Source of the DNA: Myxococcota bacterium | GTDB taxonomy: Bacteria; Myxococcota; XYA12-FULL-58-9 | NCBI GenBank assembly: GCA_036736205.1 | Contig: DAINMX010000002.1 | Location: 6,001-70,000, forward strand | Reading direction: 5' to 3' | Length of the DNA: 64,000 nucleotides | Shown here: positions 47,979-53,989 of the stretch, piece after piece | Layout of the letters: each line of letters starts with the position of its first letter | Numbering within the stretch: the stretch's first letter is position 1 | Program-made: the position numbers and the translations under genes | Notes under the pieces: model-generated | The model's database searches: none | Told to the model about the DNA's origin: nothing | The model's input: only the letters and a program-made list of their open reading frames with translations

Positions 47979-50537
47979 TCAGGCGGATGTGAGAGGCAAT
48001 GCACAATTTTCAGAATTGCGGGTCGTCCGGAACCAATCCTCCAAAGCAAGGAAGCTCTCGACGACCTCCGGATCGAACTGCCCTCCCGAGTGGCGAACAA
48101 TCTCTTTCATTGCAGCACTGTGTGACAATCCCTGGCGATAGGGCCGATCAGAAGTCATGGCATCGTATGTGTCCGCCACCGCCATCACGCGCGCGCCAAT
48201 CGGGATGTCCACCTTGCGCAAACCGTCCGGATATCCGGTACCGTCGTAACGCTCATGATGCGCTCGCACCGCCGGTGCCACGGCACCGATCTCTGAGATC
48301 TGTTGCACGATCTCTGCCCCCTTGGCGGAGTGCATCTTGATCAACGCGAACTCCTCCGACGTGAGCTTCCCAGGCTTGTGCAAAACCGTCTCGGGAACAC
48401 CGATCTTGCCGACGTCGTGCAGAAGGGCCGCGAGCTCCAGATCCCGCAAATCTCGCTCCCCAAAATTCATCCTGCGAGCCAGGGCCATTGCGTACTCGGT
48501 CACGCGCACGGAATGGTTGCGGGTGTACTGATCCTTGGCTTCAAGGGCCGATATTAGACAACGCACGGTCGACAAGAACAACGACCGTTGCCTGTCCACC
48601 AAATCGTCAGCACGAGCCTTGAGATTGCGATTGAGCCGAACCAGATCGGCCTCGGCTTTGCGCATGCGTAGCAATGAACGCACCCTTGCCAGCAGCTCCG
48701 GCGGGTCGAAGGGTTTGGGGAGATAGTCGTCAGCGCCGGAGTCGATGCCCTGGGTGATCCCCTCCGGTCCTGCCCGGGCAGTTACAAGAATCACGGGAAT
48801 TTGCCTGGTTTCTTCGCTCTCCTTGATGCGTTTGCACAACTCATGCCCATCCATGCCTGGCATCATGACGTCACTGATTACCAAATCGGCCACCTCGTTG
48901 CGGACCAGGGCGAGACCGCTCTCTGCCGAGGACTCGGTAACGATGTTGTATTCGTCCTGCAACAAAAAACGCATCAATTGCAAAACATCAGGGTTGTCAT
49001 CGATGACCAACAGGGTGTGCTCATGAACTCGGGTGTTAGCATCGGTGCCGGAGATCGAAGATGCGGGCTCACGCCCACGTCGCTCGAAGCCAGCGAGTTG
49101 CAGTGAAGGGATTCCTCGCACGACGTCTCGGAGTTTCTCGGTTTCGCATGCCCCCTCACGCCGGTCGACGGCAACCTCGCGGTTACGACTTCGACGCTCC
49201 CGCACTTCGTCGGCAATGTGCGCCTCCCCTGCTTGGAACTGAACAATGAAGCTGGCACCTTCTCCGAGCTTGCTGTCGGCCCACACCTGACCGCCGTGGA
49301 GCTCGACAATCTCTTTGACCAAGCTAAGCCCAATGCCCGTGCCGTCGTGACGTCGGCTCTTTGATCCGTCCACCTGGGCAAACCTGTCAAAAATAATCTT
49401 CAGCATGCCCTCTGGAATGCCTTCGCCATTGTCCCTCACCTCGACCCGGGGTCCGTCCGCACTTTTCGCGACGACAACGCGCACTTCTCCCCCGGCCGGG
49501 GTGAACTTGAGGGCGTTCGAGAGGAGGTTCAAAACAACCTTGTCGAGCTGCTCGGTGTCACCAAAGACTTCGATCTCCGTTGCAGAACAATCCAAGCGCA
49601 GCGCGACCCGTCGTTCCACAGCCAACGGCCGGACCGCCTCCACGATGTTCCGACAAAACGCCACGAGGTCGAAGGGCGACACGCGAATACGGGTCTTGCC
49701 TTCCTCGAGCTTCGTCAGATCAAGAAGATCGTTAATGAGCTTGAGAAGTTTCAGACCATTGCGCTGCATCGCGGTGAGGTGCTCTCGCATCTGCGTAGAC
49801 AATGCAACGCCCGTTCCGTGAAGCATGGCACCGAGCGGCGCGAGTAGAAGAGTCAGAGGTGTCCTGAGCTCGTGGTTGACATTGGCGAAGAACTGGGTCT
49901 TGAGCTCGTCGAGGCTCACCAACCGTTGATTGCTCTGCTCGAGCTCCTTGGCCGTTTCCTCGAGCCGCGTCCGAACGCGCAAGGCACGACAGCGCACATT
50001 GTACATCAGATGAGATGCGATGACGCAGACGGCGATGATGCTTCCGAGAAAGAACGTATTGTTGACGACCACCCGCCATTGCAGAACACCGCGATCTATC
50101 GCCCACACCGATGGCACAATGTAGCTCAAAAAGATCACCGCGGAGACAATGAGGGTCTCGCGAGCGCCCCAGGGCAAAACGGCGAGCATGCAAATGATGA
50201 TGAGCGTAAATCCTTGGTAGTAGCTGCTCATGAATCCGCCAAGCAATTGCACCATTAGAGCAATCCCCAGCGCATCGAGAATCATCACCGCCATGCCGCA
50301 GTAGCGAGCGACTTGCTGTGTTTTGTTGAAGTGAAGCACGGCCAGAACGGCGACATTGCTGATCACTACGGCCAAACGCACCAGGAGAAACGGGCCCAAC
50401 CACTCTGGCGCAATGACAGCATCAAGAATGCCAAACGACGGATAAAAGAGAATGCTCAGTTGGGTGGCGATCGTCACGCGCCCGTGCAGATCGTATTCTC
50501 GATCGAATTGACGACTGAAATCGGATGATTCGGTCAT
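47979..50537 (-). CDS. Membrane hybrid histidine kinase - receiver - HD-GYP phosphodiesterase
   Basis: 852 aa. About 6 N-terminal TM helices. HisKA H-box FANVNHELRTPLTLL. HATPase boxes (VRDNGEGIP, GTGIGLSLV). Receiver (LLVIDDNPDV...LVISDVMMPGMDG...YLPKPF). HD-GYP (ALLHDVGKIGVPETVLHKPGKLTSEEF...HHERYDGTGYPDGL). Confidence 0.85.
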   Translation of the reverse strand: MTESSDFSRQFDREYDLHGRVTIATQLSILFYPSFGILDAVIAPEWLGPFLLVRLAVVISNVAVLAVLHFNKTQQVARYCGMAVMILDALGIALMVQLLGGFMSSYYQGFTLIIICMLAVLPWGARETLIVSAVIFLSYIVPSVWAIDRGVLQWRVVVNNTFFLGSIIAVCVIASHLMYNVRCRALRVRTRLEETAKELEQSNQRLVSLDELKTQFFANVNHELRTPLTLLLAPLGAMLHGTGVALSTQMREHLTAMQRNGLKLLKLINDLLDLTKLEEGKTRIRVSPFDLVAFCRNIVEAVRPLAVERRVALRLDCSATEIEVFGDTEQLDKVVLNLLSNALKFTPAGGEVRVVVAKSADGPRVEVRDNGEGIPEGMLKIIFDRFAQVDGSKSRRHDGTGIGLSLVKEIVELHGGQVWADSKLGEGASFIVQFQAGEAHIADEVRERRSRNREVAVDRREGACETEKLRDVVRGIPSLQLAGFERRGREPASSISGTDANTRVHEHTLLVIDDNPDVLQLMRFLLQDEYNIVTESSAESGLALVRNEVADLVISDVMMPGMDGHELCKRIKESEETRQIPVILVTARAGPEGITQGIDSGADDYLPKPFDPPELLARVRSLLRMRKAEADLVRLNRNLKARADDLVDRQRSLFLSTVRCLISALEAKDQYTRNHSVRVTEYAMALARRMNFGERDLRDLELAALLHDVGKIGVPETVLHKPGKLTSEEFALIKMHSAKGAEIVQQISEIGAVAPAVRAHHERYDGTGYPDGLRKVDIPIGARVMAVADTYDAMTSDRPYRQGLSHSAAMKEIVRHSGGQFDPEVVESFLALEDWFRTTRNSENCALPLTSA

Positions 50538-53500: not shown

Positions 53501-53989
53501 ATAAGCTGGGGTCTGCAGGAACAGACCGTCAGGGCTCATGTTGGTGATTCGGCCGCCCGCGACCCGAGCACCGGTGATCTTGAGATCATTGATGCCCGGC
53601 AGCTCAACCCGCATATTGGTACGTTTGTCGGCGAGTTTGCGCGCAAGAAGTACATTCACGCGATGTAGCAAATCGCCGGGCACAAAGGGTTTGGTGTAGA
53701 AGTAATCGATTCGCCCGACATTGATGGACGAAATGACGTCCTCGGGGTCGGTGAATGCTGTCAACAGTATTTTGACAATACGTTCGGCATCGTCCCGAGT
53801 TTCGTGGACAGCACGCAAGAACTCGATACCACTCATGCGCGGCATTCGCTGATCTGCAATGATGACGTCGACGCGAGGGAGCTCCCCTAGCTTTTCCAAC
53901 GCCTCCAAACCATCGGCAGCGCGGTGAAACTCAAACTCGCGATGAAACAGCCGCTGCAATGCATCCAGGTTGTCGCCTTCGTCATCCAC
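50534..53989 (-). CDS. Multidomain signalling protein (1151 aa): N-terminal receiver, two PilZ domains (both with RxxxR), central alpha/beta-hydrolase-like region, C-terminal class I SAM-dependent methyltransferase
   Basis: REC: VDVIIADQRMPRMSG...KILLTAFTD. PilZ-1: KRTNMRV ... ITNMSPDGLFL. PilZ-2: KRAAQRGP ... VIDRTERGVGF. Hydrolase-like block has no canonical GxSxG (closest is VSFSLSS). MTase motif I is FLDLGGGTGNFV and a later motif is GGRLVLST. A GTG start was used by the ORF track. The stop overlaps the start of the HD-GYP kinase gene by 4 nt. Confidence 0.8.
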   Translation of the reverse strand: MDDEGDNLDALQRLFHREFEFHRAADGLEALEKLGELPRVDVIIADQRMPRMSGIEFLRAVHETRDDAERIVKILLTAFTDPEDVISSINVGRIDYFYTKPFVPGDLLHRVNVLLARKLADKRTNMRVELPGINDLKITGARVAGGRITNMSPDGLFLQTPAYLREGSTVPFELSLPDGKHFSIMGSVARVDTRNGGVGIRFETIGDDTRTAITRFLADHVTLRDLVELQRRYPFLKTSEMIAFSDPTRISELLREVASKRIEAAALHSESRSAVPLALIDLIVDNEVILAGEALSIEFLTSETVFISFNMGHTTYNFETMVVRIAEDGTSMVCLYPRVMFYSEKRAAQRGPDETELQVRIPLPEPFCVELHGDVIDRTERGVGFITAGDGPLLLAGTPLESIRIMRGEELVHEDRGEVRHVAKVKGGLRVGVQFGLGRRSLRIIEPPRFVMAAATEKPRQRSLANGAPAGDSVRKEPDVVRFENNRGEEIVALLNTSMPLGDEAVPVVLVPPAFGKTKETLFALAMTVVSTFARMGKPVAVLRWDGVRRKGESFKEADAAEPPYEMIHACISQGADDTIATLDWLDANPRLKASHVTLVSFSLSSLESRLMLRNEQQRQRIDYWIPCMGTPELRYLLSRVNCGLDLLEQHQLGMQMGLISVLGNLVNVDKYMADGIANRVATLDQARADMGLIDIPITWIYGEHDHWVRHDFIRDVMGVDAKAPRELISLPLGHNARTSEQALKLFGTIASAVFKSSNNAEAEAVIPAPEDLEYVRRAERERLPVRTEGKREDYWRRYLVGEEDLIGFDVLMLADDYKILMRDQEQQLELRPTDRFLDLGGGTGNFVDHLLDGDSVLPQEICLGDLIPEALHQASRKLSTRLDAASYSGVFSTSCVDIEMNRYLPITRFLCGELHSVTSLGDKIEGITVSAIHEIADNYSQRLHAIIRGAAVTAKDESWLKRQFGLSAVRTVLDLNAASRYVGLGEAPRKYRTLRFSPDKEGGLRLPFASGAYDKILMSLVLSYVFNPVETLIELRRVLAPGGRLVLSTLYPDADASGLFTRLAEKIEGMGDDDLPDGWSRSFVLKSIRSFLNDAQALVELGEAGAFEFFEQARLQALLDDAGYDVISTVDSFGSPAQGYVCVATPREGA

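Follow-up and report, generated by a model that had tools for sequence, protein, structure and literature searches.

A conserved gene pair joining a PilZ-hydrolase-methyltransferase protein to a sensor kinase with HD-GYP output

Results

The minus strand of the analyzed window (the whole stretch of 64,000 nucleotides) carries two adjacent genes, A and B, which form a strictly conserved module that was overlooked as such in the initial annotation. Pfam matches and comparison distinguish in the product of gene A, in this order, a receiver (REC), a PilZ domain, a conserved block of around 120 aa, a second PilZ domain, a LuxD-like alpha/beta-hydrolase and a class I SAM methyltransferase. Gene B encodes a hybrid histidine kinase that combines a membrane sensor with HD-GYP as its output domain. 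With moderate confidence we propose that the pair consists of an enzyme under c-di-GMP gating, which sets free and methylates a product of acyl or lipid nature, and a sensor phosphodiesterase dedicated to it.

Conservation of the gene pair

Both open reading frames lie on the minus strand where they had been annotated, gene A at 50534..53989 (1151 aa from a GTG, as listed and translated) and gene B at 47979..50537 (852 aa from an ATG), and the reported ATGA, in which the stop codon of A overlaps the B start (50534..50537, minus strand), is present in the sequence. A database search yielded around 90 full-length homologues of gene A with 44-51% identity, mostly from metagenome-assembled genomes (MAGs) of Aminicenantes/Acidobacteriota and every one of metagenomic origin. 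Given that these homologues share the length (1164-1213 aa) and the domain order, gene A is not a fusion artefact. In all 73 loci that extend 700 nt or more downstream, gene B was found directly 3' of gene A, and in 59 of 60 orthologous loci the two overlap by 4-14 nt, with start codons assigned heuristically. A GGDEF cyclase is the third gene in 27 of 63 loci. The architecture of gene A had not been recognized as a described one, and likewise no description of it or of the A-B pair was found in the searchable literature (PilZ surveys and full-text searches).

The listed GTG at 53989 cuts off strand beta-1 of the receiver of gene A. The frame contains no ATG, GTG or TTG between the upstream stop and this codon, and the only in-frame alternatives are ATC at 54034, which directly follows a Shine-Dalgarno-like GGAGGA hexamer (54035..54040, minus strand), and ATT at 54028, which lies 6 nt downstream of it. 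The homologues have around 14 residues ahead of the VVLxVDDD strand. From the upstream reading frame, the true start is probably the ATT, which gives a gene at 50534..54028 (minus strand) and a protein of 1164 aa. Residues of gene A are numbered from this ATT; the numbering from the GTG is obtained by subtracting 13. No membrane segment was predicted in the protein (hydropathy).

The regulatory half of gene A

The receiver (53654..54007, minus strand) was recovered by Pfam Response_reg (PF00072) at 60.5 bits against a cut-off of 30.2. Its best NCBIfam match is the receiver of REC-HD-GYP regulators (92.6 bits), and it is 32% identical to the receiver of gene B. The window copy has D15/D16, the acceptor D59, T90 and K113 all present. 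Among 41 homologues, the acceptor column holds Asp in 8, Asn in 18, His in 4, Ser in 3, Glu in 3, Arg in 2 and other residues in the remainder. Judged by these residues, the domain is a predicted pseudo-receiver in most homologues, which had been missed, with the Asp kept in the window copy.

PilZ domain 1 (53336..53641, minus strand; PF07238, 53.4 bits versus a cut-off of 22.5) contains the motifs R136-T-N-M-R140 and N163-M-S165-P-D-G168; across 41 homologues K135, R136, R140 and G168 never vary and S165 is conserved in at least 90%. PilZ domain 2 (52619..52972, minus strand) scored 20.9 bits versus the same cut-off when scanned alone, emerged as a second stretch in a Pfam scan of the PilZ segment, and gave a PilZ match in 20 of 20 homologues. 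Its motifs are R359-A-A-Q-R363 and D390-R-T392-E-R-G395, of which R359, R363 and G395 are, together with K358, invariant in the 41 homologues, and at the position of T392 at least 90% of the homologues have Ser. The two domains align with each other in hhalign over 80 columns (E 8e-5). The claim that both keep the RxxxR motif thus stands, as RTNMR and RAAQR, and on the basis of these residues both are predicted to bind c-di-GMP.

The strongly conserved block of around 120 aa between the PilZ domains (52973..53335, minus strand) is an addition to the domain list of the initial annotation and shows the pattern RYPFL...FETM..RI..DG...CLYPRV. Pfam searches with 20 members and a PDB search gave no match, and in hhalign the block resembled none of PilZ-1, PilZ-2 and REC (probability below 4% for the two PilZ domains). 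The resemblance to the PilZN domain of YcgR-type proteins is one of position and size only.

The enzymatic half of gene A

The alpha/beta-hydrolase (51683..52561, minus strand) is of the LuxD-like, acyl thioesterase/acyltransferase type, with a putative triad of S616 (in FSLSS), D719 and H748. The window copy scores 13-16 bits with Acyl_transf_2 (PF02273), below the cut-off of 20.3; relatives pass it (P0165 at 25.6 bits), and many homologues have a precomputed PF02273 assignment. By sequence and structure comparison the closest fold is that of LuxD, cap region included. In the HMM alignment, FSLSS falls on ASLSA of LuxD, with S616 at LuxD S114 and D719 at D211, and the assignment of H748 is based only on a G-H position past the last strand and on its invariance. 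Among 150 representatives at no more than 50% identity, S616 is conserved in 145, D719 in 148 and H748 in 149. The domain had been described as lacking a canonical nucleophile elbow, which is correct in so far as the motif is FSLSS and not G-x-S-x-G; the catalytic triad is nevertheless complete and conserved. Because FSLSS aligns to ASLSA of LuxD and the Ser, Asp and His are near-invariant, the absent elbow does not indicate inactivity. The substrate would be an acyl-thioester.

The presence of a class I SAM-dependent methyltransferase at the C-terminus (50537..51646, minus strand) was corroborated by Pfam matches above threshold (Methyltransf_23, _11 and _12), motif I (LDLGGGTGN, with the GxGxG), an acidic post-I residue (D879) and a Rossmann fold. 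The GxGxG is conserved in 147-148 of the 150 representatives. A helical insertion of around 80-110 aa after strand 3 is specific to the gene A family and absent from a short class of relatives of 815-845 aa. Pfam and structural matches sort the domain to the small-molecule type and not to the protein-methylating CheR type; in sequence and predicted fold it resembles small-molecule, natural-product and polyketide (PKS) methyltransferases.

The sensor kinase of gene B

Pfam recovered HisKA, HATPase_c, Response_reg and HD_5 in gene B, so that the partner is indeed an HK-REC-HD-GYP protein. The N-terminal integral membrane region (49983..50480, minus strand) comprises around 5-6 hydrophobic segments with short loops and, according to hydropathy, no sizeable extracytoplasmic ones. 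It matches MASE8 (PF20968) at 15-15.6 bits versus a cut-off of 26.2 and is therefore referred to as MASE8-like; the first 200 residues share homology with the sensor parts of kinases encoded beside other classes of the ABH-MTase enzyme (E 7e-29, 1e-14 and 3e-14), which themselves match MASE8. The HisKA and HATPase_c core (49233..49901, minus strand) carries H222 within NHELRTPL, the receiver (48672..49016, minus strand; Pfam 98 bits) carries the acceptor D556 in a conserved DVMMPGMDG, and the HD-GYP c-di-GMP phosphodiesterase domain (48048..48575, minus strand; HD_5 145 bits, HD 81 bits) carries H707-D708, H760-H-E762 and G768-Y-P770. All of these elements, including H222, D556 and the near-invariant H-box, are intact in 65 orthologues.

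Genomic neighbourhoods

In the window, the genes next to the A-B pair code for envelope proteins, TamB and an Omp85 protein, a neighbourhood that is not kept in the homologous loci. There was no glycosyltransferase or polysaccharide export gene conserved beside the pair in the homologous loci, no chemotaxis gene near it in those loci or the window, and no ACP, ligase or exporter gene beside it in the window or the Aminicenantes loci. The wider relatives of gene A form 443 clusters (E<=1e-30). Neighbours of distant hydrolase-methyltransferase (ABH-MTase) relatives include an AMP-binding (acyl-AMP) ligase, an ACP and a B12-radical-SAM protein (locus L091), an acyl-CoA dehydrogenase (L092) and a coupled radical-SAM protein and MMPL exporter (L085, L087 and L093). 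Kinases of the MASE8 type with differing outputs adjoin REC-less classes at L086, L089 and L092, and the classes at L088 and L091 have no kinase neighbour. With one to three loci per class, these neighbours suggest export and a chemistry of acyl groups or lipids.

Discussion

A proposed c-di-GMP-gated enzyme with its own phosphodiesterase

The reading that we favour starts from direct observations, namely the domain identities, the motifs and their conservation, the obligate linkage of A and B and the neighbourhoods. The MASE8-like multi-pass domain of gene B would perceive a membrane-associated cue, upon which the kinase core may phosphorylate H222 and pass the phosphate to its own receiver at D556. 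This receiver would control the fused HD-GYP domain and in that way the hydrolysis of c-di-GMP, the resulting level of which would be read by gene A via its two canonical PilZ domains. Together with the often degenerate receiver and the block in between, the PilZ pair may then control the C-terminal two-enzyme unit. The LuxD-type hydrolase would accept onto S616 the acyl group of an acyl-ACP or acyl-CoA thioester and then release or transfer it, and the small-molecule class I methyltransferase would methylate the released product or a tethered substrate. The net result would be a second-messenger-gated output of a methylated small molecule derived from a fatty acid or lipid, where we infer both the direction of regulation and the nature of the product. 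The logic put forward initially, in which a signal is sensed, c-di-GMP is both degraded and received, and enzymes act as the output, fits the domains of A and B. If true, the production of lipid-derived small molecules would be under c-di-GMP control in a module common to many uncultured bacteria.

A more specific version of this explanation, which we regard as possible at a rather low probability, is that A makes a diffusible methylated autoinducer derived from a fatty acid, which is sensed by the MASE8-like domain of B, after which the HD-GYP domain lowers c-di-GMP and feeds back on the PilZ domains of A. It is modelled on PhcB-PhcS and RpfF-RpfC-RpfG: the Ralstonia methyltransferase PhcB yields methyl 3-hydroxymyristate, which is sensed by the histidine kinase PhcS (PMC8578825, PMC11960443), and RpfC/RpfG, a sensor kinase with a REC-HD-GYP protein, answers a fatty-acid signal from FAS intermediates (PMC3744752, PMC4542539). 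Moreover, what is found repeatedly next to ABH-MTase genes from different classes is the MASE8-like sensor and not a given kinase output, the lack of sizeable extracytoplasmic loops is as expected for a hydrophobic ligand, and MMPL exporters flank the short class. The argument is, however, one of adjacency, recurrence of the sensor and analogy, the kinase is missing next to some classes, and co-regulation through one common cue would account for the linkage just as well. An unlikely alternative is a cycle like that of BioC/BioH, in which a carboxyl group of a small molecule or acyl-ACP is methyl-esterified by the methyltransferase and freed again by the hydrolase, with the PilZ pair setting the balance. 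The Methyltransf_11/UbiE type of the methyltransferase agrees with this, as does the name pimeloyl-ACP methyl ester esterase given by one source to the hydrolase part of one relative, but the closest relative of the hydrolase in sequence and fold is the thioesterase LuxD, cap included, and BioH is absent from its top 60 matches. In addition, a fused futile cycle would be unusual, and the ACP, ligase and exporter neighbours better fit a biosynthetic route.

The PilZ fusions BcsA and Alg44 place the synthesis and modification of polysaccharides under c-di-GMP control (10.1101/814665), and considering this classical role and the TamB and Omp85 genes in the window, c-di-GMP could turn on O-acylation and O-methylation of a surface polymer or lipid. 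The chances of this appear small, since gene A has no predicted membrane segment, and neither polysaccharide genes nor the TamB/Omp85 neighbours are conserved beside the pair. The initial annotation suggested that c-di-GMP controls the methylation and demethylation of a target, here taken to be a protein, in the manner of CheB and CheR. A receiver, an esterase-type triad and a methyltransferase do bear a superficial resemblance to CheB plus CheR, and the PilZ protein MapZ regulates CheR1 (10.1101/814665). We consider this idea highly improbable, as it is largely refuted by the folds: the analogy fails because the methyltransferase is akin to those of small-molecule and polyketide chemistry and not to CheR, which is not among its top structural matches, and the hydrolase is a LuxD-type alpha/beta-hydrolase without the CheB fold and with no CheB among its top structural matches. 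No Pfam match to CheR (PF01739), CheR_N (PF03705) or CheB_methylest (PF01339) was found down to E 10, chemotaxis genes are not nearby and the receiver of gene A is degenerate in most homologues.

Comparison with known systems

LuxD of Vibrio harveyi (PDB 1THT), a myristoyl-ACP thioesterase/acyltransferase, has the same x-S-L-S-x nucleophile motif in place of G-x-S-x-G, with the Ser and Asp of the triad in register and an alignable cap region. It differs in that the identity is only around 16%, that it is a lux operon protein whereas the hydrolase of gene A sits inside a 1164-aa signalling protein, and that the latter has the additional invariant charged residues K532, E533, R557, D559, E566, R623 and D659. 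The best structural matches of the methyltransferase, CurJ C-MT, PsoF, AprA MT2, Coq5 and TmtA, are class I enzymes of the polyketide/fatty-acid-synthase and natural-product kinds and share its Rossmann core, motif I, acidic post-I residue and helical lid, at 9-22% identity and in a flat score list. As in the cellulose synthase BcsA, PilZ is fused to a catalytic output, but compared with known PilZ receptors and fusions, gene A has three regulatory domains ahead of two enzymes, and its outputs (a thioesterase-like hydrolase and a SAM methyltransferase) are absent from two PilZ surveys. YcgR-type proteins have PilZN before PilZ, whereas the block in gene A has no detectable similarity to either.

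Among two-gene signalling systems, PhcB-PhcS may be analogous, with the gene of a SAM methyltransferase that acts on a fatty-acid-derived substrate beside that of a membrane histidine kinase (PMC8578825, PMC11960443). Unlike gene A, PhcB has no PilZ, REC or hydrolase domain, and the Phc system contains no c-di-GMP enzymes, whereas gene B has an HD-GYP domain. RpfC/RpfG of Xanthomonas, which respond to the fatty-acid signal DSF, resemble gene B in uniting a multi-pass sensor kinase with a receiver and HD-GYP; these components are separate in RpfC/RpfG and fused in one polypeptide in gene B, which has no HPt domain and a MASE8-like sensor. Although gene A, unlike RpfF, is not of the crotonase family, gene B adjoins in it an enzyme with thioesterase-type chemistry, a predicted likeness to the Rpf system.

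Organization and conservation of the gene pair

Gene A, which encodes a receiver (REC), two PilZ domains, a hydrolase and a methyltransferase (50534..53989, minus strand, 1151 aa from a GTG), and gene B, which encodes a sensor kinase with a REC and an HD-GYP domain (47979..50537, minus strand, 852 aa from an ATG), are long ORFs that share the ATGA at 50534-50537 as stop and start, respectively, as described in the initial annotation. Their GC content (0.56-0.585) lies within that of the window (0.56-0.63), leaving a foreign island without a GC signature.

With the annotated GTG 53989 as start, the protein would open with M-D-D-E and lack beta-1, the first strand of the receiver; in the alignment around 14 residues precede the conserved VVLxVDDD strand in the homologues. 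No ATG, GTG or TTG is present in frame between the upstream stop and this GTG, and the frame runs on upstream as ...GGITISAQQDKRGVILAVDDE. A GGAGGA (54035-54040, minus strand) is followed by ATC 54034 and ATT 54028, both rare start codons and the sole in-frame upstream candidates. Given the missing standard starts and the open upstream frame with its GGAGGA, A was numbered from ATT 54028 (1164 aa), and residue numbers counted from the GTG are lower by 13; either a non-canonical start codon is used within 53989-54040 or the assembly contains an error there. Promoter and terminator scans gave no signal above shuffled expectation, and Rfam returned no riboswitch upstream of A and no other family, in the whole window at gathering scores or in 53900-54350 at E<=1. 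The 230 nt between A and its divergent upstream neighbour contain a terminator-like hairpin with T-run (54157-54171, minus strand); overall, such sites are no more numerous in the region than expected from shuffling. Divergent from A lie a TamB-like gene (54220-58116, plus strand, 1298 aa) and, overlapping it by 38 nt, a TamA/BamA-like POTRA-Omp85 gene (58079-61282, plus strand, 1067 aa), a neighbourhood that is not kept in homologous loci.

A protein of "Deltaproteobacteria bacterium RIFOXYA12_FULL_58_15" has the same sequence as the window copy of A. Full-length homologues form around 90 clusters (44-51% identity, 1164-1213 aa), all of metagenomic origin and mostly from Aminicenantes/Acidobacteriota, and their database names are "PilZ domain-containing" or "UbiE" and no others. 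The caveat that A might be a fusion artefact or contain a frameshift is ruled out by these ~90 homologues of equal length and domain order. Linkage was counted in 84 fetched loci, with adjacency scored where at least 700 nt lie downstream of A: in 73 of 73 such loci the gene immediately after A is a B orthologue (~49% identical), and with heuristically assigned start codons 59 of 60 pairs overlap by 4-14 nt. A and B are inseparable and overlapping. The original observation, a conserved uncharacterised family in an obligate pair, is real and more solid than could be known from the one sequence.

In 27 of 63 Aminicenantes-type loci the third gene after B encodes a 7TM (HisKA_7TM)-PAS-GAF-GGDEF cyclase (e.g. 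16164-18230 in locus L001), and such loci would constitute a complete operon to make, break and read c-di-GMP. This third gene is absent from the A-B locus of the window. A GAF-GAF-GGDEF gene located 7 kb away (38423..40648, minus strand, 741 aa, the N-terminal ~250 aa without Pfam match) was rejected as its counterpart, since the similarity (43%) is confined to the GGDEF domain and gives no evidence of orthology; the next gene, after a gap of 1 nt, encodes a PIN-PhoH ATPase (37094-38422, minus strand). The O-methyltransferase and esterase genes upstream in L001 and L003 were likewise discarded as parts of the module, as they are not kept in L004 or in the window.

The regulatory half of A

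Pfam assigns residues 11-124 to Response_reg (60.5 bits) and residues 135-231 to PilZ (PilZ-1, 53.4 bits). PilZ-2 (residues ~353-470), the second stretch in the PilZ-segment scan, reaches 20.9 bits alone versus a cut-off of 22.5; all 20 homologous PilZ segments match PilZ in Pfam, and the two domains align with one another in hhalign (E 8e-5). The two RxxxR motifs (R136/R140 and R359/R363) that the initial annotation had noted in the PilZ domains are both invariant among 41 aligned full-length homologues, as are the glycines of both [D/N]xSxxG motifs; at position 392 of PilZ-2 the window copy has a Thr and at least 90% of the homologues a Ser. Residues 232-352, a strongly conserved block of 120 aa that separates PilZ-1 from PilZ-2, have no match to Pfam families or PDB sequences, nor to PilZ or REC in hhalign. 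In YcgR-type proteins PilZN occupies the same place, a likeness that is positional only: identification of the block as PilZN/xPilZ is unsupported by Pfam, PDB profile search and hhalign.

In the receiver of the window copy the acidic pair, the acceptor D59, T90 and K113 are all retained. In the homologues the acceptor column contains Asn in 18 of 41 and Asp in only 8 of 41 sequences, and phosphorylation can therefore not be a conserved feature of the family; in most homologues the receiver cannot take phosphate and may have a docking or regulatory role only. Its best NCBIfam match is the REC of REC-HD-GYP regulators (92.6 bits versus 51 for the next) and it is 32% identical to the receiver of B. 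The window copy could additionally accept phosphate from B.

The enzymatic half of A

The alpha/beta-hydrolase (residues ~490-782) shows only a weak match to Acyl_transf_2, and a profile search with the domain gave LuxD, a myristoyl-ACP thioesterase, as best solved relative (PDB 1THT, E 8e-4). In the profile alignment the FSLSS of A falls on the ASLSA of LuxD, so that S616 matches the nucleophile S114; D719 is in register with D211, and the cap regions can be aligned as well. The non-canonical nucleophile elbow noted in the initial annotation is therefore characteristic of LuxD-type enzymes and no sign of decay.

The C-terminus (residues ~795-1164) indeed scores as a class I methyltransferase (Methyltransf_23/_11/_12 above the Pfam threshold), and no homologue in the alignment departs from motif I (LDLGGGTGN) or from D879, the acidic post-I residue. 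The structural model of this domain (pLDDT 83.4) has a Rossmann core with a helical insertion and finds the acyl-ACP-acting C-methyltransferase of CurJ as top Foldseek match; further matches include PsoF, AprA MT2 and the pseudo-methyltransferase of fatty-acid synthase. Across 150 representatives S616 is kept in 145, D719 in 148, H748 in 149, the motif-I glycines in 147-148 each and D879 in 138, and this near-invariance indicates that both active sites are under selection. A carries two motif-complete PilZ domains ahead of two enzyme domains that, judged by their residues, are catalytically intact.

The initial annotation compared this content to CheB/CheR and proposed methylation/demethylation of a target under second-messenger control. 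CheR is not among the top Foldseek matches and A has no CheR or CheB Pfam match, which leaves the analogy and a reading as protein methylation/demethylation unsupported; we favour acyl or small-molecule chemistry.

Gene B

B matches HisKA, HATPase_c, Response_reg (98 bits) and HD_5 (145 bits) in Pfam, preceded by 185 residues with around 5-6 hydrophobic segments and a sub-threshold match to MASE8. H222, D556, the HD at 707-708, HHE at 760-762 and GYP at 768-770 are present in B and near-invariant in 65 orthologues. With these motifs, B, a membrane kinase whose HD-GYP output is intact, looks like a working phosphorelay-controlled c-di-GMP phosphodiesterase. Convergent with B is a 789-aa ORF (45494-47863, plus strand) with a C-terminal calpain-family Peptidase_C2 domain (E 2e-22), unexpected for a bacterial genome, and 530 N-terminal residues without Pfam match. 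Elsewhere in the window a 1626-aa protein (32204-37084, plus strand) consists largely of FG-GAP repeats (at least 11), its gene adjoining one for a PMT_2-type glycosyltransferase (30392-32170).

The wider family and its gene neighbourhoods

An exhaustive search with a hydrolase-plus-methyltransferase profile yielded 1852 cluster representatives (50% identity level) at E<=1e-3 and 443 at E<=1e-30. Three length classes can be discerned, some shorter entries being truncated gene calls: ~1170-1200 aa, with REC or an extra N-terminal domain; ~1030-1110 aa, with both PilZ domains, hydrolase and methyltransferase and without REC; and ~815-845 aa, with a weak PilZ, hydrolase and a methyltransferase that lacks the long insertion. 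For the N-termini of the short class Pfam gives weak PilZ only, and the family-specific HMMs run on the N-termini of 149 representatives are too insensitive for this divergent class.

Among the loci of REC-less, short or distant members, a 1071-aa protein is encoded by a gene overlapping that of a MASE8-HisKA-HATPase kinase (L086), a 1089-aa one adjoins a MASE8-HK-REC-HD-GYP (L089) and a 973-aa one has an acyl-CoA dehydrogenase upstream (5158-6483) and a MASE8-HK-REC-HK downstream (L092). The kinases of L092, L086 and L089 have sensor regions homologous to residues 1-200 of B (E 7e-29, 1e-14 and 3e-14, respectively). The gene of a REC-less 1033-aa member (L090) overlaps that of a hybrid kinase; MobA/TraI relaxase-helicase, ParA-like and KfrA genes around the two (1-2983, 14741-15739) suggest that they are carried on a plasmid or integrative element.

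A 1199-aa member is accompanied by an AMP-binding (acyl-AMP) ligase, an acyl carrier protein and a B12-radical-SAM enzyme (L091, 10639-13648). Three members of ~830 aa have an MMPL exporter downstream (L085, L087, L093; 6592-8778 in L093), and two of these also a coupled radical-SAM gene upstream (L085 and L087; radical-SAM and MMPL genes at 6961-8001 and 10510-12240 in L085). In L088 no neighbouring kinase, MMPL, ligase/ACP, radical-SAM or acyl-CoA dehydrogenase of these kinds was found. The lipid-type neighbours of the distant classes form biosynthetic mini-clusters, and the ACP/ligase, acyl-CoA dehydrogenase, radical-SAM and MMPL genes suggest an acyl/lipid substrate and an exported product, each kind resting on 1-3 loci and none being present in the window.

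Proposed function and significance

We rate the pair as a probable c-di-GMP effector, with PilZ fused to a new enzymatic output, and its dedicated phosphodiesterase. B would convert a membrane-associated cue into a changed c-di-GMP level, which the PilZ domains of A would read to switch the hydrolase-methyltransferase unit; the LuxD-like hydrolase would load S616 with the acyl group of a thioester, and the methyltransferase would modify the released or tethered molecule. A further-reaching reading, which we consider rather unlikely, sees in the pair a hitherto unrecognised system of cell-cell or autocrine signalling, with A as c-di-GMP-gated synthase. A would then cleave acyl-ACP and methylate the product to a hydrophobic exported signal, e.g. 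a fatty-acid methyl ester, for which the MASE8 domain of B would be the receptor, the HD-GYP output feeding back on c-di-GMP. If so, a single operon would connect quorum-type lipid signalling with c-di-GMP, both in Aminicenantes/Acidobacteriota and in other uncultured lineages.

For the preferred reading, an effector with its phosphodiesterase, the occurrence of PilZ before a thioesterase-like hydrolase and a methyltransferase in at least 443 clusters (50% identity), with strictly conserved active sites, suggests direct control of lipid or small-molecule chemistry by c-di-GMP, a class of output so far undescribed. The module is compact, an obligate pair of reader-enzyme and sensor-phosphodiesterase with a cyclase as third gene in ~40% of the loci, and as a self-contained example of local c-di-GMP signalling it could be reconstituted in vitro. 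The pair is a first point of entry to the function of MASE8 sensors and to signalling in Aminicenantes, known here from MAGs only, and is of clear interest to specialists in c-di-GMP and signalling.

Comparison with known systems

PilZ domains are the commonest c-di-GMP receptors and few are fused to enzymes; to our knowledge, the known PilZ-enzyme fusions control polysaccharide synthesis. The impression that the architecture of A is undescribed holds: fusions of PilZ to a hydrolase or methyltransferase go unmentioned in two surveys of PilZ architectures, and full-text literature searches combining PilZ with methyltransferase, hydrolase, LuxD or Aminicenantes gave no such architecture. At the level of single domains, the hydrolase is nearest to LuxD and the C-terminus to PKS/natural-product methyltransferases. 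B resembles RpfC and RpfG as if fused into one protein. DSF signals stem from intermediates of fatty-acid synthesis and act via RpfC/RpfG (PMC4542539, PMC3744752); RpfF differs in fold from A, and the likeness to the DSF system is one of analogy, not of membership. The same holds for the PhcB/PhcS system, in which PhcB makes methyl 3-hydroxymyristate and the kinase PhcS senses it (PMC8578825, PMC11960443), and which A and B would resemble in the placement of a methyltransferase gene beside the gene of a membrane kinase.
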